NCBI GenBank assembly: GCA_017621655.1
Contig: JAGASS010000016.1
Span: forward strand, 79,961-143,960
Direction: 5' to 3'
DNA from: Clostridia bacterium
Lineage (GTDB): Bacteria; Bacillota; Clostridia; Oscillospirales; CAG-272
Length of the DNA: 64,000 bases
Both the position numbers and the translations under genes were made by a program. Below the pieces are notes generated by a model, which did not search any database, was not told the origin of the DNA, and worked only from the letters and a program-made list of their open reading frames with translations. This document shows, piece after piece, positions 3,959 to 13,116 of the stretch. Each line of letters begins with the position of its first letter. The stretch's first letter is position 1.

Positions 3959-4693
3959 GTGAAGTACCTACTGACAATTTCATACGACGGCAGAAGCTAC
4001 TGCGGCTATCAAAAGCAGAAAAACGGCGTGTCTGTTCAGGAAAAACTGACCGATGCCGCTTCCGCGCTGTTTGGTGACGGTACGAAAATTACGGGTTGCT
4101 CGCGTACCGATAGCGGAGTTCACGCCGTCGCGTTCAAGGCAACGCTTGAAAGCGAAAACGCTAAGATCAAGCCGGAAAAGCTGCCGTCGGCACTTAACGC
4201 GCATCTTCCGCCCGATATATCGGTAAGAGATGCGTCGGAATCCGACGCGGACTTTCATCCGCGCTATTCCGTCAAGGAAAAGGAGTACAGATATATTATC
4301 TGTAATTCATCTACACGCGATCCGTTCAGCGAGGGAAGAGCATACTTTTTCCCGAAAAAGCTAGATGCCGAAATAATGAATGAAGCCGCGCAGTCTCTTG
4401 TCGGAAAGCACGATTTCAGAGCGTTTATGGCGTCGGGATCAAAAATTGAAGATACCGTAAGAGAAGTCTATTCTTGTACCGTTACAAGAGAGGGCGATAA
4501 TATAACCGTCTCGGTCCGCGGAAACGGATTTCTCTACAATATGGTAAGAATAATCGTCGGAACGCTTATCGCAGTTTCCGACGGCAAGATCGCAAAAGAC
4601 GATATTGCGAAAATAATAGAAAGCAAGGACCGTAAAAACGCAGGTCCGACTGCTCCGGCAGAAGGACTGTATCTATACGACGTAAAGTATTGA
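3959..4693 (+). CDS. truA: tRNA pseudouridine(38-40) synthase TruA
   Basis: SRTDSGVHA catalytic motif, GFLYNMVRIIVG, TAPAEGLYL. Confidence 0.96.
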   Translation: MKYLLTISYDGRSYCGYQKQKNGVSVQEKLTDAASALFGDGTKITGCSRTDSGVHAVAFKATLESENAKIKPEKLPSALNAHLPPDISVRDASESDADFHPRYSVKEKEYRYIICNSSTRDPFSEGRAYFFPKKLDAEIMNEAAQSLVGKHDFRAFMASGSKIEDTVREVYSCTVTREGDNITVSVRGNGFLYNMVRIIVGTLIAVSDGKIAKDDIAKIIESKDRKNAGPTAPAEGLYLYDVKY

Positions 4694-4707
4694 GAAAGGA
4701 GGCAAAA

Positions 4708-5994
4708 ATGGAGGAAAAGAAAAAGCCACAGGTTCCGTCTGAAAATGATAAACCGGAAAAACGCGGATACAAGCTTATAAAAAAGAGAAGCTCGGTCGTT
4801 ATGCCTAAAGCAAAATACGACGGTGCGTTTGAAAAAGAAAACCCATATTATATAAAGATAGCTAATAAATATGCTATCCTAAAGTATATATCTATTCTGC
4901 TGACCTTCGTTTTTGCCGTAACGATGCTGACTGCATTCAGCTCTGACATAACGCCGGAGAATTTTCAATATCTATTAAAGGACCTCGATATTACAGGTGT
5001 CCTTTCGGGAAGCAAGTTCGACTCGGTAATATATAACGGCGGTTCGACCTCGTCCTTCGGTATCTACAGAGGAGAGCTGGCAGTTATAAACGCCGGTTCG
5101 ACGATGCTGTATAAGCCGTCGGGTGCGCTGTCGTACAGTGATACTAATAAGTTTTATAATCCTCGCCTTGTTATATCGGATAAATATATGCTGATATACG
5201 ACAGAGGCGATACGACGCATACCTACTCGGTACATAATTCCTTTGCAAAGCTGCATGAGGAAAGATATGAATATCCAATAACTCTTGCAGATATGTCAAA
5301 TAAGGGAAGCTACGCAGTTGTAACGCGTGACGACAGCTTCCGAAGCATCGTGTATATATACGATGAGAACTTTAATCTGAAAAATACCGTTAAAAAGGAT
5401 AAATACGTTCTTTCGATAAGTATGAATGACGCAGGCAATAAGCTTGCGATCGCATCGGTCTACGATAAGGAAGGCGCCTTTGAGAGCGAAATACTCGTTC
5501 TCGGAATATCTAGCGAGAAGCCCGATTTTACCGTGACCGAAGAGGGAAAGATACCGCTAAAAAGCGAGTGGCTGAAAAACGGAGACCTGGCTGTTGTTTA
5601 TTCCGACTGCGCGGTGATCTATTCGCCTAAGGGCGATAAACGGGCAACGCTTCAGCTCAGCGGTCATTCGTCACATAATCTCGAGCTTAACTCGTCGCTG
5701 ATCGTTTCGGTGTATAATACGACGGTCCTCGGTTACGATAAAACGGTAAACGTTTACGACGTGAACGGAGAGCTTATAATGACGTCCTCGATCGAGGGAG
5801 AGCTTATAAAAATTCTTCCCGGAAGCGACAAGGTTTGTCTGCTTTTTGAAGACAGAGCAGTGCTTATCGACGTAGTTTCAAAGACCGTAAAGGAAGCGCC
5901 CGTTAAGCCGAACGCAAAGGACGTAGCGTTCTATGAGGATAGCGTAATAGTTTGTTATTCCGGCGGAGCCGAGCCGCTTGATTTCGGCAAATAG
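4708..5994 (+). CDS. Membrane-anchored beta-propeller-like protein (DUF5711-like)
   Basis: One N-terminal TM helix then beta-rich repeats; AAGGAGG RBS before ATG 4708; lies upstream of a CvpA gene as such proteins often do in Clostridia. Confidence 0.55.
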   Translation: MEEKKKPQVPSENDKPEKRGYKLIKKRSSVVMPKAKYDGAFEKENPYYIKIANKYAILKYISILLTFVFAVTMLTAFSSDITPENFQYLLKDLDITGVLSGSKFDSVIYNGGSTSSFGIYRGELAVINAGSTMLYKPSGALSYSDTNKFYNPRLVISDKYMLIYDRGDTTHTYSVHNSFAKLHEERYEYPITLADMSNKGSYAVVTRDDSFRSIVYIYDENFNLKNTVKKDKYVLSISMNDAGNKLAIASVYDKEGAFESEILVLGISSEKPDFTVTEEGKIPLKSEWLKNGDLAVVYSDCAVIYSPKGDKRATLQLSGHSSHNLELNSSLIVSVYNTTVLGYDKTVNVYDVNGELIMTSSIEGELIKILPGSDKVCLLFEDRAVLIDVVSKTVKEAPVKPNAKDVAFYEDSVIVCYSGGAEPLDFGK

Positions 5995-6015: not shown

Positions 6016-6711
6016 ATGTCACTTTTAATTGACGTTATTGTAATAGCCGCGTTTGCAGGTTGCCTGATCCGCGGAATAAAAAAGGGCTTTATCAAGAGCA
6101 TTATCGGAATCGTCATTGTAATCGCAGCAATAATCGGCAGCGTTCAGTTCAGTCCCGCATTGGGTAATACGCTGAACGATAAGTTCGTTCACAAGTCTGT
6201 GGTCTCGGCTGCAAAAGATTCGATACCCAAAGTTGATACCGATACGCTCATTAACGAAATGCCGACTGCGTTCAAAAAGTCTCTTGACCGATTCAGAACA
6301 GATCCCGAAGACGTAAAAGAGCTGTTTGAAAACAGCGACATAGAGGAGACCGAGGAGCAAAAGCGCGCAAGAATTGCCGAGAAAATGGCTTCGCCTCTTT
6401 CAAAGGCAATATCAAGAGCACTTGCATTTCTGATAATCTTCGTCGTTTTGTATCTTGTACTCTTTATAATTTCGATAATAGTATGCGCGGTCGTAAAGCT
6501 TCCGCTTCTCAGAACTGCCGATAAGCTTCTCGGCGCACTTCTGGGAGGCGTTTCGGGAATACTTCTTGCGTGGGGAGTCAGTCTCGCAATATGCGCTCTG
6601 CTTCCTCACCTTTCGGTCCTTTACGACGGAGTCGTACCCGAAACGGTCATCGATAATTCGATAGTAGTAAAATTCATCGGTAAATTCGATCCCTTTAACC
6701 TTATAAAATAA
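6016..6711 (+). CDS. CvpA (colicin V production) family membrane protein
   Basis: N-terminal IDVIVI..GIKKGFIKS and C-terminal ADKLLGALLGGVSG motifs; 4 TM helices. Confidence 0.8.
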   Translation: MSLLIDVIVIAAFAGCLIRGIKKGFIKSIIGIVIVIAAIIGSVQFSPALGNTLNDKFVHKSVVSAAKDSIPKVDTDTLINEMPTAFKKSLDRFRTDPEDVKELFENSDIEETEEQKRARIAEKMASPLSKAISRALAFLIIFVVLYLVLFIISIIVCAVVKLPLLRTADKLLGALLGGVSGILLAWGVSLAICALLPHLSVLYDGVVPETVIDNSIVVKFIGKFDPFNLIK

Positions 6712-6737: not shown

Positions 6738-9023
6738 ATGCAGCTTTGCTCAAAATGCCACAAGCGGCTTGCGGTCGTCTTTGTCGGCAAAATGATAAAC
6801 GATAAAATTGAAAACGAAGGCTATTGCCTGCGCTGTGCCAAGGGACTTGGTATTGCACAGGTCGACGCCCTTATGAATCAGTACGGTATCTCGGAGGACG
6901 ATCTCGACCGTCTTGAGCCGGATATCGACGAAAATGATCTTCCCGCAGTAATTGATGAAGCGGACGACGAGGGAAAAGCTCCCGCAATCGACTTTATGAA
7001 GATCCTCGGCTCGGTCGGCGGAATGCCGCCCATGAGGGGCAGACCCGAAAAGAAGCCGAACGAAAAGAACGAAAAGAACAAAAAAGAGAAGGAAAAGAAG
7101 TTCCTTTCTCAGTATTGCACCTCGCTTACCGATAAGGCGAAAAACGGACTTCTCGATGCTATAATCGGACGTGACCGCGAGCTTCAGCGCGTTATGCAGA
7201 TACTATGCCGCCGTCAGAAGAATAATCCTTGTCTAATCGGTGAGCCGGGTGTCGGAAAGACTGCGGTTGCAGAAGCACTTGCTTCCAAGATCGCATCGGG
7301 CGACGTTCCTTTCCGTCTCAAGGATAAGGAAGTGTATCTCGTTGATATGACCGCGCTCGTTGCAGGTACGCAGTTCAGAGGTCAGTTTGAAACGAGAATG
7401 AAGGGACTTATCGACGAGGTAAAGGCGCTCGGTAACGTTATTCTGGTTATCGACGAGGTCCATACTATCGCGTCCGCAGGCGACGCTGAGGGCAGTATGA
7501 ATGCCGCAAACATCCTCAAGCCCGCCCTTTCTCGCGGTGAGATCCAGGTCATCGGCGCAACGACACTGACCGAATACAGGAAATTCATCGAAAAGGACGC
7601 TGCGCTCGAACGTCGCTTCCAGCCCGTTATGATCGACGAGCCGTCGTTAAGCGACTGCGTTGAGATACTCAAGGGCATCAAAAATTATTATGAAAATTTC
7701 CACGGTATAACCGTCTCGAACGAGCTTCTTTATAAGGCGGTAAACCTTTCGGAGAGATATATAACTGACAGATACCTGCCCGATAAGGCAATAGACCTTC
7801 TTGACGAGGCACTTTCTTACGTTGCGCTTAAGTCAAAGGCGCTTAATGAATTCAGAGCAGCCGAGAAGGAAGCGATCGACGTTGCTACTCGCAAAGCCGA
7901 AATAGAGGCGCGCGAGGAGACCGAGCAGGAAGCACAGAATAAGAAGTACGAGGAGCTTGCAGAGATAAAGGTCAAGGAGATAAACCTTAATCAGCGTCTC
8001 GACTCGCTCCGCGAGGAGAAGGAAAAGCTCGCGCTTACAGGCGCAGACCTCGCAAGAGTTATCGAAATATGGACGGGAGTTCCTGCGTCCTCGATAATGG
8101 AAAACGATTTTGCCAAGCTCGAGCGCCTTAAGGAAAGCATATCGGGTAAGATCATAGGACAGGATCACGCAGTTGACGCTGTCGTCCGCGCGATAAGAAG
8201 AAACCGCGCGGGAGTAAGCGCGAAGCGTAAGCCCGTTTCCTTTATATTTGCAGGACCGACGGGCGTTGGTAAGACTGAGCTTGTAAAGGTGCTCGCTTCA
8301 GAGCTTTTTGATTCGCCCGAAACGCTTATACGCCTTGATATGTCGGAATTTATGGAGAAATTCTCAGTATCGAGGATAATAGGTGCTCCTCCCGGATACG
8401 TCGGCTACGATGAGGCAGGACAGCTGACCGAAAAGATCCGCCGTAAGCCGTACAGCGTAGTGCTTTTCGATGAGATCGAAAAGGCACATCCCGACGTAAT
8501 GAATATTCTTCTGCAGATCCTCGACGACGGAAGAATCACCGACGCGCAGGGAAGAACTGTCAATTTTGAAAATACCGTTATAGTTATGACGACGAACGCC
8601 GGCTCGGAGGTATCTTCATCCTCTGCGGGCTTTTCTGCAAGCCGTCACGATTCAGATAAGGAACGCACCGAAAAGGCACTTTCTACCTTCTTGCGCCCGG
8701 AGTTTATTAACCGTGTAGACGAAATAATCGTATTTAACCGCTTAAGTAAAGAAAACTTCGCGGAAATTGCGAAGCTTATGCTTAACGATCTCGTTAGAGC
8801 TTTGGCTGAAAAGGATATCAAATTCGTCTATACCGATAAGGCGGCGAAAGCTATTGCCGATGCGTCGTTCAGCGATAAATACGGTGCGCGTAATATGCGC
8901 AGATATATTGAAAAAGAGGTCGAGGATAAGCTTGCAGATAAGCTTATCAGCGGCTATACCGAGAATATTTTCGGTATTTCTCTTGATCACGACGGCGAAA
9001 AGCTGACCGTTGAAACTATTTAA
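6738..9023 (+). CDS. ATP-dependent Clp protease ATP-binding subunit, ClpE/ClpC-like with N-terminal zinc finger
   Basis: CSKC..CLRC N-terminus, two AAA+ modules (GEPGVGKT, IDEVH; GPTGVGKT, FDEIEKAH), GAPPGYVGY pore loop, AGF ClpP-docking-type loop. Confidence 0.93.
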   Translation: MQLCSKCHKRLAVVFVGKMINDKIENEGYCLRCAKGLGIAQVDALMNQYGISEDDLDRLEPDIDENDLPAVIDEADDEGKAPAIDFMKILGSVGGMPPMRGRPEKKPNEKNEKNKKEKEKKFLSQYCTSLTDKAKNGLLDAIIGRDRELQRVMQILCRRQKNNPCLIGEPGVGKTAVAEALASKIASGDVPFRLKDKEVYLVDMTALVAGTQFRGQFETRMKGLIDEVKALGNVILVIDEVHTIASAGDAEGSMNAANILKPALSRGEIQVIGATTLTEYRKFIEKDAALERRFQPVMIDEPSLSDCVEILKGIKNYYENFHGITVSNELLYKAVNLSERYITDRYLPDKAIDLLDEALSYVALKSKALNEFRAAEKEAIDVATRKAEIEAREETEQEAQNKKYEELAEIKVKEINLNQRLDSLREEKEKLALTGADLARVIEIWTGVPASSIMENDFAKLERLKESISGKIIGQDHAVDAVVRAIRRNRAGVSAKRKPVSFIFAGPTGVGKTELVKVLASELFDSPETLIRLDMSEFMEKFSVSRIIGAPPGYVGYDEAGQLTEKIRRKPYSVVLFDEIEKAHPDVMNILLQILDDGRITDAQGRTVNFENTVIVMTTNAGSEVSSSSAGFSASRHDSDKERTEKALSTFLRPEFINRVDEIIVFNRLSKENFAEIAKLMLNDLVRALAEKDIKFVYTDKAAKAIADASFSDKYGARNMRRYIEKEVEDKLADKLISGYTENIFGISLDHDGEKLTVETI

Positions 9024-9036
9024 GCTTGATTTTATT

Positions 9037-9061
9037 CGGCGGGAGCAAGCCCCCGCCCTAC
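9037..9061 (-). repeat. GTAG-type REP-like palindrome
   Basis: Minus strand GTAGGGCGGGGGCTTGCTCCCGCCG: GTAG followed by GC-rich imperfect hairpin. Confidence 0.65.
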
Positions 9062-9113
9062 AAAAACGTGGTAAAAATCTGTAAAATAGCGATTAGACTG
9101 AGCGGAGGAGCAG

Positions 9114-9140
9114 CGGACCGTCGAGGACGCCGGTCCCTAC
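9114..9140 (-). repeat. GTAG-type REP-like palindrome
   Basis: Minus strand GTAGGGACCGGCGTCCTCGACGGTCCG: GTAG followed by GGACCG..CGGTCC hairpin. Confidence 0.7.
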
Positions 9141-9246
9141 AAATCACGTGGCGTAGCTTCGTTGCGTTCTATTGGATTCCCCTTTGTCGGGCTTGGCTCA
9201 GGATGACCGCAGAATGCTTCTAAATCTCAAAGAAAGGAGAGCAGAT

Positions 9247-12039
9247 ATGGCTGAAAAATGGTATGATAAATCTGCCGTGCAGACTGCAACTATTCTCGGC
9301 ACGAACGTCGGAACGGGACTAGACCGTGAAGAAGTACGCAGACGAAGAAAGCTTGACGGTGAAAACGATATATACCCGACACCAAAGAAAAACTATAAGA
9401 CATATCTTGCTCACCTTCTGACGGATTTTAATTCGCTTCTCATGCTGACTGTGCTTCTCATAGCCGCAATATTTGAGGAGACTGAAAACCTGTTCGTTAT
9501 GTTCGCGGTGCTTATTACCTACTATATCGTCGCAATGGTAACGTATATGAAGTCGCAAAGCGTCCTTGACGATATGGGTAAGGGAGCGCTTCCGAACGCA
9601 AAGGTGCTTCGCGAGGGAAGAGTATATATGATCAAGCAGCGGCGTCTTGTCCGCGGCGACGTTATTTATATTTCTGCAGGCGATATCGTGCCGTGTGACG
9701 CGCGTCTTATTGAAAGTAATGACCTTGAAGTTCTTGAGGTGAACGTAACGGGTGTTACTCACGCTGTGCGTAAATCATCGCGCTTCGAGGAGTACCACGA
9801 TATTGCCCCTGCAAATCAGAAGAATATGCTCTTCGCGTCGTCTATCGTAACAAAAGGTAACGCAAAAGCTATCTGCTGTGAGATCGGCGGCGAGACGCTG
9901 GTCTGCAAGATGAAGAAAAATCAGCCGATCGTTTCTCACGAGCGACTGCAGGTGTTCGAGCGCATAGCGGTATTCTGCCGCCGTTGGACGCTTGCAATGA
10001 CGACGGGCGTTTTCATTTTGACCGCATTGTCGCTTCTTGTCGAATCAACGAATAACGGCATCTTCCCGTCGTTTATGACAGGCGTTTCTCTTGCTGTATC
10101 GTCTATGAGCGAGTTTTATACCGCGTTCGGCTATATAGTCCTCGCCTGCGGCATATTCGGTGCGCTCAACCGCAAAAAAGAGGTAAACAGAGGCGCGCTG
10201 ATAAAAAACAGCTCAAAGCTTGAGGACCTTAAAAACCTCACTTGCCTGATTGTGCCTAAGGAAGGCGCATTCAATATACGCGGAATGTCGCTCGAAAAGG
10301 TGTTTGCAAACGGAGACGTATATGCAAAGGAAGACCGCGGCTTCAAGAAAAACGCCGCAAGAGTTCTACGATACGCGCTTATCTCAACGGGTAAGTACGG
10401 AGCAGGAATGCTCACGCGTAACAATATGCTCGGCGAGAACATATATACCTCTGAAGAGGACGCAATAATCAAGGCGGCAGAGGGGCTGAGCGAATATAAT
10501 ATAGGTCTTGAAAAACGCTACCCGATGGTCGAGCACGTCGACCGCGGAACGCGTGGCTCTGCCTTCGATACAACTCTCGTTCACTATGAAAACGGCTTTT
10601 TCGTAAGCTTGCGCGGCGACTATTCAAGTATTCTTCCTCTTTGCCGCTACTATACTGAGGACAGCCGAGTTTATACCATGACCGACGAGAAGCTGAATAA
10701 CTTCTATATCGAAGCGGAAAAGCTTGCCCGTCAGTCATACAGAGTAATAGCGATAGCGTCAAAGGATACCGTTTATAATAATCTCAGGCGTGTAGCCAAC
10801 TGTCATACCGAGCTTACCCTCGAGGGTCTGCTCGCGATAAGAGAGCCGATTCTTCCTGATGCGGCAAAGAACGTTCTGCGCTGTAAGAACGCAGGAATTA
10901 AGGTAATTATGCTCTCGCCCGACGAAAGCGAAAATAACGCGGTAGTTGCCGAATCTCTCGGTATTGCTGCGGGACCCGATCAGCTTGTGACCGGAAGGGC
11001 GCTTTCGGGAATGAAGGAAGGAATTATCAGAGCCGATCTTGATAAATATACTGTGTATCAGGGCTTGTCACTGACTCAAAAACGAATGATAGTCCGCTAT
11101 TTGCAGGAAAAGGGTGAAAAGGTCGGCTATCTCTGCTCGGAGCTTGACGAGATAATTCTTATGAAGGAAGCCGACGTCGGCTTTGCGCAAAGTGTAACGC
11201 TTTCGGATCGTATGGGCGGTAGCGGCGTTGACCTATCAAGACATAATATCCCTATTTACAGTAAAGACGCAAATTCGGGGCAGATCGGCTGCGAGGCGCT
11301 GAAATTTGTATCAGACGTTATCGTTTCCGAACCCGATTCCTCGGGAACGGGCGGCTTTAACGCAATCGTCGATTCTTTCCTTTGCTCAAAATCTGTGTAT
11401 TATAATCTGCACAGAATGCTTAAATATATGATAAGCACGCAGATAGCTCGGCTTCTGCTTGTATTCATATCACTTCTTTGCGGATTTACCGCGCTTATTC
11501 CCTCACAGATTCTTTTCCTTGGTCTTGTAACCGACTTCGCGGCGATAATCATAATCGCCTTTGAAAAGCCCGATTATTCGCTTGTAAAAGCATCAGCGAA
11601 CGTCGGCGGTAAGCTGCATAATCCCTTTATTAAGAATCCCGAAGCCGCGCTGATGGGCATTCTTTGGGCGGTTGTTACCGCGGTCAGCGCTATGCTGTTG
11701 ACTAAGAACTCAGTAATGCCCGAATCAGCCGTTACTGCATATTGCTTCGTAAGCTTCATTATTGCGCAGATAGCGATGCTGAACGAATGTAAACGAGAGC
11801 AGAGCGTTTTCGATAAGAACGTAAGAGTGAACGGCGCGTATGTTACGATGCTTGTAGTTGTCGTTGGGTTCATCGCATTCGCATTTGCTTTGCCAAGCTT
11901 TGGAAAGCTGTTTGGAATTGTTCGTATGTCGCCATATGCGGCTCTTGCGGCTTTGATTCCTGCCGTGATCCTGACGGCGGCTTACGAGATCTTCAAGGCG
12001 ATCACGCGTCCGAAAAAAGATAAAAAAGTGCATAAATAA
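9247..12039 (+). CDS. P-type (P2/Ca2+-ATPase-like) transporter homologue lacking all catalytic motifs
   Basis: Cation-ATPase N-terminus, A-domain LVRGDVI..AGDIVPCDARL, about 10 TM helices, QILFLGLVTD; but DKTGT is PKEGA, TGES is TGVT, TGD is SPD, GDGVND is CSELDE. AGAAAGGAGA RBS before ATG 9247. Confidence 0.88.
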   Translation: MAEKWYDKSAVQTATILGTNVGTGLDREEVRRRRKLDGENDIYPTPKKNYKTYLAHLLTDFNSLLMLTVLLIAAIFEETENLFVMFAVLITYYIVAMVTYMKSQSVLDDMGKGALPNAKVLREGRVYMIKQRRLVRGDVIYISAGDIVPCDARLIESNDLEVLEVNVTGVTHAVRKSSRFEEYHDIAPANQKNMLFASSIVTKGNAKAICCEIGGETLVCKMKKNQPIVSHERLQVFERIAVFCRRWTLAMTTGVFILTALSLLVESTNNGIFPSFMTGVSLAVSSMSEFYTAFGYIVLACGIFGALNRKKEVNRGALIKNSSKLEDLKNLTCLIVPKEGAFNIRGMSLEKVFANGDVYAKEDRGFKKNAARVLRYALISTGKYGAGMLTRNNMLGENIYTSEEDAIIKAAEGLSEYNIGLEKRYPMVEHVDRGTRGSAFDTTLVHYENGFFVSLRGDYSSILPLCRYYTEDSRVYTMTDEKLNNFYIEAEKLARQSYRVIAIASKDTVYNNLRRVANCHTELTLEGLLAIREPILPDAAKNVLRCKNAGIKVIMLSPDESENNAVVAESLGIAAGPDQLVTGRALSGMKEGIIRADLDKYTVYQGLSLTQKRMIVRYLQEKGEKVGYLCSELDEIILMKEADVGFAQSVTLSDRMGGSGVDLSRHNIPIYSKDANSGQIGCEALKFVSDVIVSEPDSSGTGGFNAIVDSFLCSKSVYYNLHRMLKYMISTQIARLLLVFISLLCGFTALIPSQILFLGLVTDFAAIIIIAFEKPDYSLVKASANVGGKLHNPFIKNPEAALMGILWAVVTAVSAMLLTKNSVMPESAVTAYCFVSFIIAQIAMLNECKREQSVFDKNVRVNGAYVTMLVVVVGFIAFAFALPSFGKLFGIVRMSPYAALAALIPAVILTAAYEIFKAITRPKKDKKVHK

Positions 12040-12077
12040 AAAATGACCGAAAACGTTAGGTTTTCGGTCATTTTTTT
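12038..12077. terminator. Bidirectional intrinsic terminator
   Basis: AAAAAATGACCGAAAAC-gttag-GTTTTCGGTCATTTTTT between convergent genes. Confidence 0.9.
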
Positions 12078-13116
12078 ACTGTATTTCGTCTATGAAGTAA
12101 GCTCTTGAATACGCCTTGTATCCTTGTGCATCTGTAACTGTCACGCGGATATATGCAGGCGGATCGGTCTTTAGCTTGTGCGCTGAATCGGCGATGTAGG
12201 ATTTGAGGTCAAATACCGCTTCTGTGTGCGGCACTCCGTCCTTGGATCTTACGCATCTGTTGTGACGTCTTTCGGTTGCAACTTCAACTGACACTGCAGG
12301 AGAGGTTTTGACGGTGAGTATGCCGTCCTCAATATAGAGATCGTGTATCTCGGTACCTGTCGACGAATAAAAATCGCCGTTTTCAAGCGCGGTCATAACG
12401 GTGGTATAATCAAGCTTGTCTGCCTTGATCATTACCCAGCCACCGAAATAGTCCCAGAAGGTGTCCTTTTTGCCGTGCGCGTCGTCTGTAGCGAGAGGGA
12501 AGACGTTTTCACCGAGAGCGAGAAGATCGTCAAGCGGCTGAACTGTATCGGGATAGCCGCTTCTTGCGCACCCTGCGTTATACACCTCAACGCCCCAAAC
12601 GCCCTTAAGCTTTGAATAGAACGGGTAGTGGTTGAGCGACCATACGGGATGATTGTAGGAGACGATAAAGCCGTCTTCCTTAGCGGCTGCAATTACCTCG
12701 TTCATTGACTCGGGAGTAAAGGTCCTCTTGAAGTCGATCTCCTTCATTTCATCAGCCATATACTGTTCGGCATGAGCAGGCCAAAGGCGTGACTTCGAGT
12801 ATACAGAGCAGACCGTCTTGTTTGGGTCCTTGGCATAGAGATTCATGTGACAGGTCTCGCGGTAGCTGTACGCACCGTGAGTGATCTCGGCGTTTGTCGC
12901 GAGCTCAACGGCGGTTATCGCAAGAAACTCATCGTCGTCAAGGTCCTTGTGCGGCACCATCGCTTCGTGGTCGGTAAAAGCGACGACGGAATATCCGCGC
13001 TTCTTGTATTCTTCCTTTATCTCCTCGGGGGTAAGCGATCCGTCGGAGATCGTCGTGTGAACGTGAAGATTCGCCTTATAATAATTACCTTTTTCGGGTA
13101 AAAGGTGCTTTTTCAT
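12076..13116 (-). CDS. PHP-domain metallohydrolase
   Basis: NLHVHTTISDG, FTDHE, YNHP, ATDDAH metal-ligand motifs. Confidence 0.85.
   Translation of the reverse strand: MKKHLLPEKGNYYKANLHVHTTISDGSLTPEEIKEEYKKRGYSVVAFTDHEAMVPHKDLDDDEFLAITAVELATNAEITHGAYSYRETCHMNLYAKDPNKTVCSVYSKSRLWPAHAEQYMADEMKEIDFKRTFTPESMNEVIAAAKEDGFIVSYNHPVWSLNHYPFYSKLKGVWGVEVYNAGCARSGYPDTVQPLDDLLALGENVFPLATDDAHGKKDTFWDYFGGWVMIKADKLDYTTVMTALENGDFYSSTGTEIHDLYIEDGILTVKTSPAVSVEVATERRHNRCVRSKDGVPHTEAVFDLKSYIADSAHKLKTDPPAYIRVTVTDAQGYKAYSRAYFIDEIQ

Follow-up and report, generated by a model that had tools for sequence, protein, structure and literature searches.

The stretch of DNA analysed here, called the window in what follows, covers 64,000 nucleotides (nt) of contig JAGASS010000016.1 in the genome of a Clostridia bacterium of the order Oscillospirales (assembly GCA_017621655.1). 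On its plus strand lies a gene for a protein of 930 residues (P0001) which has the architecture of a P2-type ATPase and in which the motifs of catalysis have been replaced. What defines a P-type ATPase is its cycle through an aspartyl phosphate, and the Asp that would carry the phosphate is among the residues that are missing. The gene, its signals and the segments in which it departs from working pumps are the following, with positions counted from the first letter of the window:

9172 (TTG) to 12039, plus strand: the open frame, from the open reading frame call.
9233 to 9239, plus strand: ribosome-binding site AAAGGAG, 7 nt 5' of the ATG at 9247.
9247 to 12039, plus strand: coding sequence of the motif-less P2-type ATPase homologue, from translation, Pfam, the alignment to LMCA1 and the structural model.
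9748 to 9759, plus strand: A-domain loop with TGVT for TGES, the dephosphorylation Glu being replaced by Val, from the LMCA1 alignment.
10102 to 10119, plus strand: M4 segment SMSEFY for IPEGL, with Glu289 kept and the Pro lost, from the LMCA1 alignment and the model.
10243 to 10272, plus strand: former phosphorylation site, CLIVPKEGAF (residues 333-342) for C(S/T)DKTGTLT (CTDKTGTLT in LMCA1), with Pro337 at the position of the Asp, from the LMCA1 alignment.
10294 to 10806, plus strand: homologue of the N (nucleotide-binding) domain, residues about 350-520, with RGD for KGA (KGG in LMCA1), from the LMCA1 alignment and the model.
10915 to 10923, plus strand: SPD for TGD, from the LMCA1 alignment.
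11134 to 11151, plus strand: CSELDE for GDGVND, with Ser for the first Asp and the last position still acidic, from the LMCA1 alignment.
11194 to 11286, plus strand: P-domain insertion of about 31 residues (650-680) after ADVGFAQS, a low-confidence loop, from the alignment and the model.
11440 to 11451, plus strand: M5 segment QIAR, with Gln732 and Arg735 at the positions of the Asn and Glu of the Ca site, from column comparison.
11521 to 11535, plus strand: M6 segment GLVTD, with Gly759 for the Asn of the Ca site and Asp763 kept, from column comparison.
12043 to 12077, no strand assigned: terminator hairpin with 12-nt arms, a 5-nt loop and a flanking A-run and T-run, from the sequence.

The original prediction, which was made from the letters of the window alone, described an intact frame of 930 residues with a strong ribosome-binding site, its own terminator and host-like codon usage, and all of these are borne out. 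The ribosome-binding site and the ATG are kept in 8/8 aligned relatives, even where a different spacer lies upstream of them, and the terminator follows just 3' of the TAA stop, where it separates the ATPase gene from a convergent gene for a PHP-domain protein. The GC content of the gene is 0.478 compared with 0.475 for the whole window, and its codon usage correlates with that of 14 pooled neighbouring genes at r = 0.86. An Rfam scan of positions 8800-12300 returned nothing above chance, with six sub-threshold matches which all fall on the terminator.

Motif positions were taken from a HMMER alignment of the protein to the solved Listeria Ca-ATPase LMCA1 (6zhf, E 4e-43). In this alignment each of the replacements named in the original prediction (CLIVPKEGAF, TGVT, RGD, EPIL, SPD and CSELDE) is found where it had been placed, EPIL lying opposite the DPPR of LMCA1 and the span 10255-10269, given there for the phosphorylation site, corresponding to residues 337-341. 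The wider statement that every catalytic motif is replaced is right for the listed motifs and slightly too strong as a whole, since K338 (directly after the Asp position), D559 (the Asp of TGD), K612 (matching K684 of SERCA) and E635 (the last position of GDGxND) are both retained and conserved. The insertion after ADVG had been put at about 25 residues and has to be corrected to about 31. An intact DKTGT elsewhere in the protein, which had been considered as a way in which the motif loss could be only apparent, was not found, as the 930 residues contain no DKTG string anywhere.

Profile searches describe the same mixture of kept fold and lost chemistry. Three Pfam models exceed their cut-offs in the window protein, namely E1-E2_ATPase (77.1 bits), Cation_ATPase_C (57.7 bits) and Cation_ATPase_N (31.0 bits), while the HAD Hydrolase model stays below its own (18.7 vs 26.4). 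All 17 NCBIfam models listed for the protein also remain below cut-off: the generic P-type model TIGR01494 gives 53.4 bits against a cut-off of 62.3, compared with 311.8 bits for an intact paralogue, and the equivalog models for P2A Ca2+-ATPases fall far short (TIGR01522, 172.1 vs 798.3; TIGR01116, 141.8 vs 703.4). With its A, N and P domains, helices M1-M10 and three Pfam domains the protein belongs to the P-type ATPase superfamily as a group defined by fold and homology. It falls outside the same group defined as enzymes, on account of the phospho-Asp, the TGES Glu, the TGD and GDGxND motifs and the TIGR01494 cut-off, and it falls outside the P2A Ca2+-ATPases as well, the residues of the Ca site being only partly kept and both equivalog models scoring below cut-off.

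Whether the losses belong to this one gene or to a wider group can be read from two sets of homologues. The close set came from a word-indexed search in which 7999 candidates were scored, and consists of the 120 homologues listed (96-40% identity) out of 495 at E <= 0.001. The deep set came from an exhaustive search of representatives at 50% identity, from which the best 150 of 1474 proteins at E <= 1e-30 were taken; the window protein and the rows of this best 150 were reduced to 134 sequences of 800-1300 residues by dropping 16 fragments or fused forms, and the 134 were split by motif into 110 motif-less and 24 intact sequences. One of these, P0232, which has DTTGT together with TGES and GDGVND, was assigned to the intact set by eye.

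Among the close homologues the column of the phospho-Asp holds Pro in 99, His in 14, Asn in 8 and Asp in 0/121, and conservation extends to the motif that has taken its place, TCL(I/L)VPKE-x-AF. The deep set extends this to sequences whose identity to the window protein falls to about 23%, as Asp occupies the column in 4/110 motif-less representatives versus 24/24 intact pumps. The Glu of TGES is present in 18/121 close homologues and 10/110 clade representatives, against 24/24 intact pumps, while GDGxND occurs in 0/121 close homologues and the column of its first Asp is most often Ser (35) or Arg (26) among the 110. The Lys of KGA is replaced by R456 in 121/121 close homologues, and a group of pocket residues, K338, E339 (acidic in 109/121), D559, K612, D634 and E635, is conserved in the close family. 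DKTG strings do occur in 5/121 homologues, at residues of about 657-699, where they lie inside the variable insertion and do not align to the phosphorylation site.

In a FastTree phylogeny all 110 motif-less sequences form one group with a support of 100, with only P0232 outside it, and in an IQ-TREE analysis of 44 of the 110 together with the 24 intact sequences a single branch divides the two sets (SH-aLRT 100). To judge from these alignments and trees, the window protein is a member of one old clade which shares the catalytic losses; the original prediction had asked whether a clade consistently lacks the Asp, and this one does in all but 4/110 representatives. Since the trees are unrooted and sample only the closest part of a huge family on the intact side, a single origin of the losses is compatible with the data and unproven.

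Some members of the two sets stand apart. P0236, P0259 and P0260 lie in the clade and carry D-K at the old site (SVMCDK.., VICADKN..) while lacking TGT, TGES and GDGxND; they may be intermediates or cases of independent decay. C-terminal tails of 100-370 residues are found in P0115, P0134, P0124, P0136 and eight others, two of which share a GIGYLFS-type motif, and Pfam searches on 15 long family members found the tails of 12 to be disordered, acidic and devoid of a Pfam domain. Among the intact matches, P0221, P0243 and P0256 are P-type ATPases of 1543-1643 residues, and the presence of two DKTG motifs in two of them suggests tandem fusions. Searches of the ESM Atlas returned generic P-type ATPase clusters only.

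The ion-binding region in the membrane is changed as well. In M4 the Glu is present in 91/110 motif-less sequences (24/24 intact), whereas the Pro that precedes it is found in 6/110 (24/24 intact). In M5 the position of the Asn is Gln in 81/110 (Asn in 23/24 intact), and that of the Glu is Arg in 97 and Lys in 9 of the 110 (Glu in 23/24 intact). The Asn of M6 has become Gly in 109/110 (Asn in 24/24 intact), while the M6 Asp is kept in 107/110 (23/24 intact). The close homologues agree with this, with Arg or Lys at the M5 position and Asp in M6 in 120/121 each, and D763 is one of just ten invariant columns in an alignment of 93 rows as well as being invariant in alignment A1. When a fixed switch is defined as a position that is at least 70% conserved in both groups, the 110 motif-less and the 24 intact sequences, and differs between them, nine such positions are obtained (Y100, M287, K320, G702, G703, Q732, R735, G759 and A766). 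The window protein has all nine, and M4-M6 hold five of them. By these column counts the ion site has not eroded but taken on a new, fixed form.

The AlphaFold2 model, computed from the alignment of 93 rows, has a mean pLDDT of 89.2 and a pTM of 0.88, with low confidence only in the insertion at 650-680, the sole long stretch of this kind, and in the last residues. It keeps the A, N and P domains and has exactly ten membrane helices, where the original prediction had counted about ten, and M4 is broken at residues 286-287, just before Glu289. Comparison with known structures by Foldseek and VIA-align puts P2-type pumps at the top (E 1.8e-45), with Z scores of 33-35 over 825-862 residues for E1 states of SPCA1, SERCA and LMCA1. 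The lowest root-mean-square deviation, 4.5 A, is to SERCA bound to phospholamban. E1-type states match the model better than E2 states do (TM-scores of 0.72-0.77 vs 0.50-0.56), although this E1-like shape is weak evidence, given that a predictor may be biased towards one state.

The gene is present in 18/18 other genomes of the genus at 48-96% identity, and none of these copies contains an internal stop; one of them (G014) is split between two contig ends. Ratios of nonsynonymous to synonymous substitution (dN/dS) were calculated by the Nei-Gojobori method with a script written for the purpose; 12 genes allow 66 pairs, of which the 21 with dS < 1.5 were used. For the motif-less gene they range from 0.036 to 0.064 (n=21), compared with 0.024-0.044 for the control, the C-terminal 400 codons of the adjacent clpE. 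Five genome pairs could be shared with an intact P2-type paralogue of 884 residues, for which the ratios are 0.033-0.079 as against 0.036-0.064 for the motif-less gene. The ratios are rough, as dS is high at 0.6-1.5, and are nevertheless far from 1. By this measure purifying selection acts on the gene as strongly as it does on an intact pump encoded in these genomes.

Constraint is distributed unevenly along the protein. At genus level dN/dS is lowest in the N domain (0.009-0.027) and highest in the last six membrane helices, TM5-10 (0.06-0.13). Over the depth of the clade the P domain shows the largest drop in mean pairwise identity (0.24 in the 110 motif-less sequences vs 0.59 in the 24 intact ones) and the A domain the smallest (0.34 vs 0.42). 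This pattern fits a release of catalytic constraint with retention of the scaffold, as far as sequence conservation can tell. The window genome (2.1 Mb, 96.7% complete) encodes five other P-type ATPases with TGES and DKTGT, three of the CPC and two of the PEGL type.

The original prediction had inferred selection for a non-pumping role instead of decay, and had proposed that an intact paralogue be looked for, that dN/dS should lie well below 1 and that the P, N and A domains be modelled. Its inference is strengthened on each of these points: the Asp is lost throughout the clade, dN/dS is low and no higher than in the intact P2 paralogue, 5/5 of the other PF00122 matches in the same genome are intact at both motifs, and all three domains are retained in a high-confidence model. 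Its further proposal, to look for conserved neighbours, led to a gene that it had not mentioned, that for a ClpE-type unfoldase, which directly precedes the motif-less ATPase gene. The features of this neighbourhood are:

4690 to 5994, plus strand: DUF5711 protein, in the collinear block.
6016 to 6711, plus strand: CvpA-family membrane protein, in the collinear block.
6738 to 9023, plus strand: ClpE-type double-ring AAA+ unfoldase of 761 residues, which has a zinc ribbon (CxxC...CxxC) at its N terminus and lacks a Clp_N domain, from domain scans.
9024 to 9246, plus strand: spacer of 223 nt between clpE and the ATPase gene, with two GC-rich hairpins, from the sequence and the alignment of relatives.

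These genes belong to a co-directional run in the window, consisting of a methyltransferase gene, ecfA, ecfA', ecfT, truA, the DUF5711 gene, the CvpA gene, clpE and the motif-less ATPase gene, which is followed by the terminator and the convergent PHP-domain gene. Synteny was counted at loci found via the ATPase which had enough upstream DNA, with the intact-pump locus L120 excluded. ClpE lies directly upstream of the motif-less ATPase in 20/23 assessable loci overall, made up of 9/11 loci from the collection of species genomes (not L022 and L029), 6/6 loci from genomes of the order and 5/6 metagenome loci from deep branches with 22-29% identity to the window protein (not L172; L169 could not be assessed, its upstream DNA being short). 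The gap between the clpE stop and the ATPase start was -4 to 92 nt in 14/15 loci read and 489 nt in one, and in some genomes the start and stop codons of the two genes overlap. This adjacency raises the odds that the two genes are transcribed together and share a role, short of proving it.

A ClpE orthologue occurs in 60/61 sampled genomes of the order, and among 30 ClpE loci of the order the next gene is a motif-less ATPase in 6 (families f1, f8 and f17) and an intact pump in 0, the other 24 having assorted unrelated genes in the slot. The slot after clpE is a general break-point of synteny, yet a stable home for the motif-less gene where this is present. The N-terminal linker of ClpE also differs between the two kinds of locus: the motif [AT]P-x-[ILMFVA]-D-[FLIM] (AP-x-I-D-F type) occurs in 14/20 loci with the ATPase and 1/24 without it, while an FPFL-type motif occurs in 0/20 and 14/24, respectively. 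This contrast can be explained by relatedness.

Several further features of the neighbourhood were recorded. The DUF5711 protein has one predicted membrane helix followed by a long repeat-like region, and the block of DUF5711, CvpA and clpE is conserved also in genomes without the motif-less ATPase. Sampled genomes of the order encode, in addition to the ClpE orthologue, a separate ClpC-like paralogue of about 820 residues. PADLOC gave no match for the ATPase, the DUF5711 protein or the CvpA protein. In the spacer each hairpin is followed by CCCTACAAA(1-2 nt)ACGTGG, a 17-nt pattern that occurs just once more, and loosely, in the window. Close relatives have a spacer of 25-30 nt or different inserts between clpE and the ATPase gene, and from its sequence the expansion in the window looks like a small inserted repeat. 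Locus L019 shares a collinear run of nine genes with the window and encodes an ATPase of 63% identity, though its record bears the title Selenomonadaceae; a mistake in binning or labelling of that record is suspected.

The members of the family come from Clostridia, Oscillospiraceae, Ruminococcaceae, Eubacteriales and similar metagenome-assembled genomes, and in public records they are all annotated as "cation-transporting P-type ATPase". With the A3 profile the close family (at least 697 bits) was found in 8/301 sampled genomes of the order, all from one family, and, the window's own genome aside, in 0 of 399 genomes sampled across the class, in which two matches at about 570 bits are intact pumps. 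The deep member P0190, used as a query, likewise gave no match at E 1e-90 when the 399 genomes of the class were searched. Intact pumps and deep motif-less members score alike against the A3 profile, at 480-540 bits, and of 15 matches fetched from this range 14 were intact and 1 was motif-less. The profile score therefore cannot gauge the spread of the whole clade, as only the close family stands out from intact pumps. A scan of the genome collection with alignment A2, using a pattern that also matches intact pumps, kept 80 loci, of which 11 were motif-less, 68 intact and 1 unreadable (L020).

Without a phosphorylatable Asp, we infer, the protein can run no E1P/E2P cycle and cannot pump. On its sequence, the product of the gene should be called a P2A-derived pseudo-ATPase, that is a pseudoenzyme that probably derives from a pump, and not a cation pump. 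The reading that we favour, and hold to be probable with considerable room for error, is that of a non-pumping membrane scaffold or sensor. In this mechanism the basic side chain of M5 would occupy the place where cations used to bind and act as a built-in counter-ion for the Asp of M6, and the pairing of Arg or Lys with Asp would keep the membrane domain E1-like, as if its site were occupied. The protein could then signal what state the membrane or the Asp-Arg site is in (for instance whether the site is protonated), or make use of that state, with the well-conserved A domain and the N domain, constrained within the genus, serving as a cytoplasmic platform for binding or signalling. It may also work together with a ClpE-centred module encoded in what may be the same transcription unit. 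Such a working link is possible and only inferred, and about half of the credence given to the scaffold or sensor as a whole goes to versions in which the link is real.

A number of points weigh against this picture. A functional tie to ClpE is unproven, because the block of ecfA-ecfA'-ecfT-truA-DUF5711-cvpA-clpE mixes unrelated functions that are inherited together. ClpE does not need the motif-less ATPase, since it is present in nearly all sampled genomes of the order and followed by the ATPase at only a fifth of the loci, and three motif-less loci (L022, L029 and L172) have no ClpE upstream. The E1-like shape of the model may be a habit of the predictor, and the proposed contact of Arg735 with Asp763 is drawn from alignment to the positions of the Ca site, not from a measured distance. 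The conservation of K338, E339, D559, K612, D634 and E635 in the close family, finally, makes it possible that some ligand is bound at the old active site.

The first alternative is a passive conduit or a stand-alone sensor of ions or protons, in which the Glu, Arg or Lys and Asp of M4-M6 would conduct or sense without ATP and independently of ClpE. The clade-specific residues that are most strongly fixed sit in the membrane core, the M4 break at the Glu is kept in the model, and the proton-handling centre of P3A pumps is an Arg/Asp pair at these positions, as described in a 2023 review (PMC10654040). A conduit, however, would have no use for the A, N and P domains, whose dN/dS within the genus lies below that of the membrane helices, as the values for the N domain and TM5-10 illustrate. 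There is a minor but real chance that this alternative is correct.

A slightly smaller chance is given to a more specific proposal, in which the motif-less ATPase is the membrane receptor of ClpE and its locked, pump-shaped body recruits ClpE (and ClpP) to the membrane. Its lateral cavity might even hand over membrane proteins for extraction, in loose analogy to the helix-dislocating P5A ATPases, though here the power would come from a separate AAA+ motor. Compatible with a receptor are the retention of the gene pair across the depth of the clade, the codon overlap, the variable slot after clpE and the contrast in linker motifs, the last being confounded by relatedness.

Alternatively, the protein could pair with an active P-type pump, one of the two intact P2 enzymes encoded in its genome, and regulate it or support it structurally. 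Candidates are at hand, as the genome has two intact P2-type and three CPC-type pumps, and a P-type dimer is on record among the structural matches (MgtA dimer). But the intact P2 genes lie on other contigs, and no intact pump gene adjoins the motif-less gene in any locus examined, which leaves the partnership with a slim chance.

It is quite improbable that the protein is still an enzyme which binds a nucleotide or phosphoester, and perhaps hydrolyses it, without the canonical Asp. Such an activity would make sense of the pocket residues conserved in the close family, of R456 in all close homologues and of an N domain that is the most constrained part within the genus. It is difficult to reconcile with an Asp column that holds 18 different residues across the 110 clade sequences, with the P domain having suffered the greatest loss of conservation, with the disappearance of TGES and the first Asp of GDGxND, and with a Pfam Hydrolase score below cut-off. 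A neutral relic, a dead pump gene drifting to loss, is hardly credible: all catalytic hallmarks are gone and between families the protein diverges far faster than its neighbour (23-35% identity vs 57-62% for ClpE), but the dN/dS equals that of an intact paralogue, the copies in the 18 other genus genomes are free of internal stops, with just one split between contig ends, and the clade is old and has signature residues of its own.

If the favoured interpretation, a non-pumping scaffold or sensor, is correct, a large and old bacterial clade has kept the machine without its chemistry under selection like that on a working pump, and the P-type scaffold would have a second use. A P-type ATPase that nature has "locked" by building a cation into it would be useful for asking what the domains do without cycling, and the protein is a possible membrane partner for ClpE-type unfoldases. 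The annotation as "cation-transporting" inflates the predicted ion-transport capacity of gut and rumen Clostridia genomes.

Among known systems the P2A Ca2+-ATPases (LMCA1, SPCA1 and SERCA) are nearest, both by sequence and by fold, the E value to LMCA1 and the Z scores over more than 825 residues having been given above. The window protein shares with them the order of domains, the N- and C-terminal Pfam domains, the ten helices, the M4 Glu and the M6 Asp. Unlike them it lacks the phospho-Asp, the TGES Glu, TGD, GDGxND and the M4 Pro, has the 31-residue insertion in the P domain, and carries Gln and Arg in M5 for Asn and Glu and Gly in M6 for Asn. In having a basic M5 residue that would face the M6 Asp instead of a metal site it may resemble the P3A H+-ATPases (AHA2 and Pma1), a likeness drawn from the alignment to intact pumps. 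Pma1 is among the structural matches (Z 29.4), and for the plant H+-ATPase AHA2 the 2023 review describes the pair Asp-684/Arg-655 (PMC10654040). In contrast to the window protein, the P3A pumps are active enzymes with all motifs, and the motif-less clade branches with P2-type pumps.

Chan et al., who surveyed the P-type ATPases of prokaryotes in 2010, reportedly list functionally uncharacterised families, termed FUPA. These are prokaryotic P-type ATPase homologues of unknown role, as are the members of the motif-less clade; one of them, FUPA 24, is mentioned in a further paper (PMC3573892). A full-text literature search turned up no account of P-type ATPases from bacteria that form a clade without the Asp, with the reservation that Chan et al. 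might already list the clade, and a word search of the 2023 review (PMC10654040) led to no bacterial case either.

The nearest precedent found in the literature would be eukaryotic, an analogy with the P4GC proteins of alveolates. These retain a P4-ATPase module although certain lineages, such as Cryptosporidium and P4GC-beta, have changes both at the DKTGT Asp and at the A-domain Glu (PMC13466520). They are of the P4 lipid-flippase type, fused to a guanylate cyclase and degenerate in some lineages only, whereas the motif-less protein of the window is stand-alone, bacterial and of the P2 type, and its loss is common to the whole clade.

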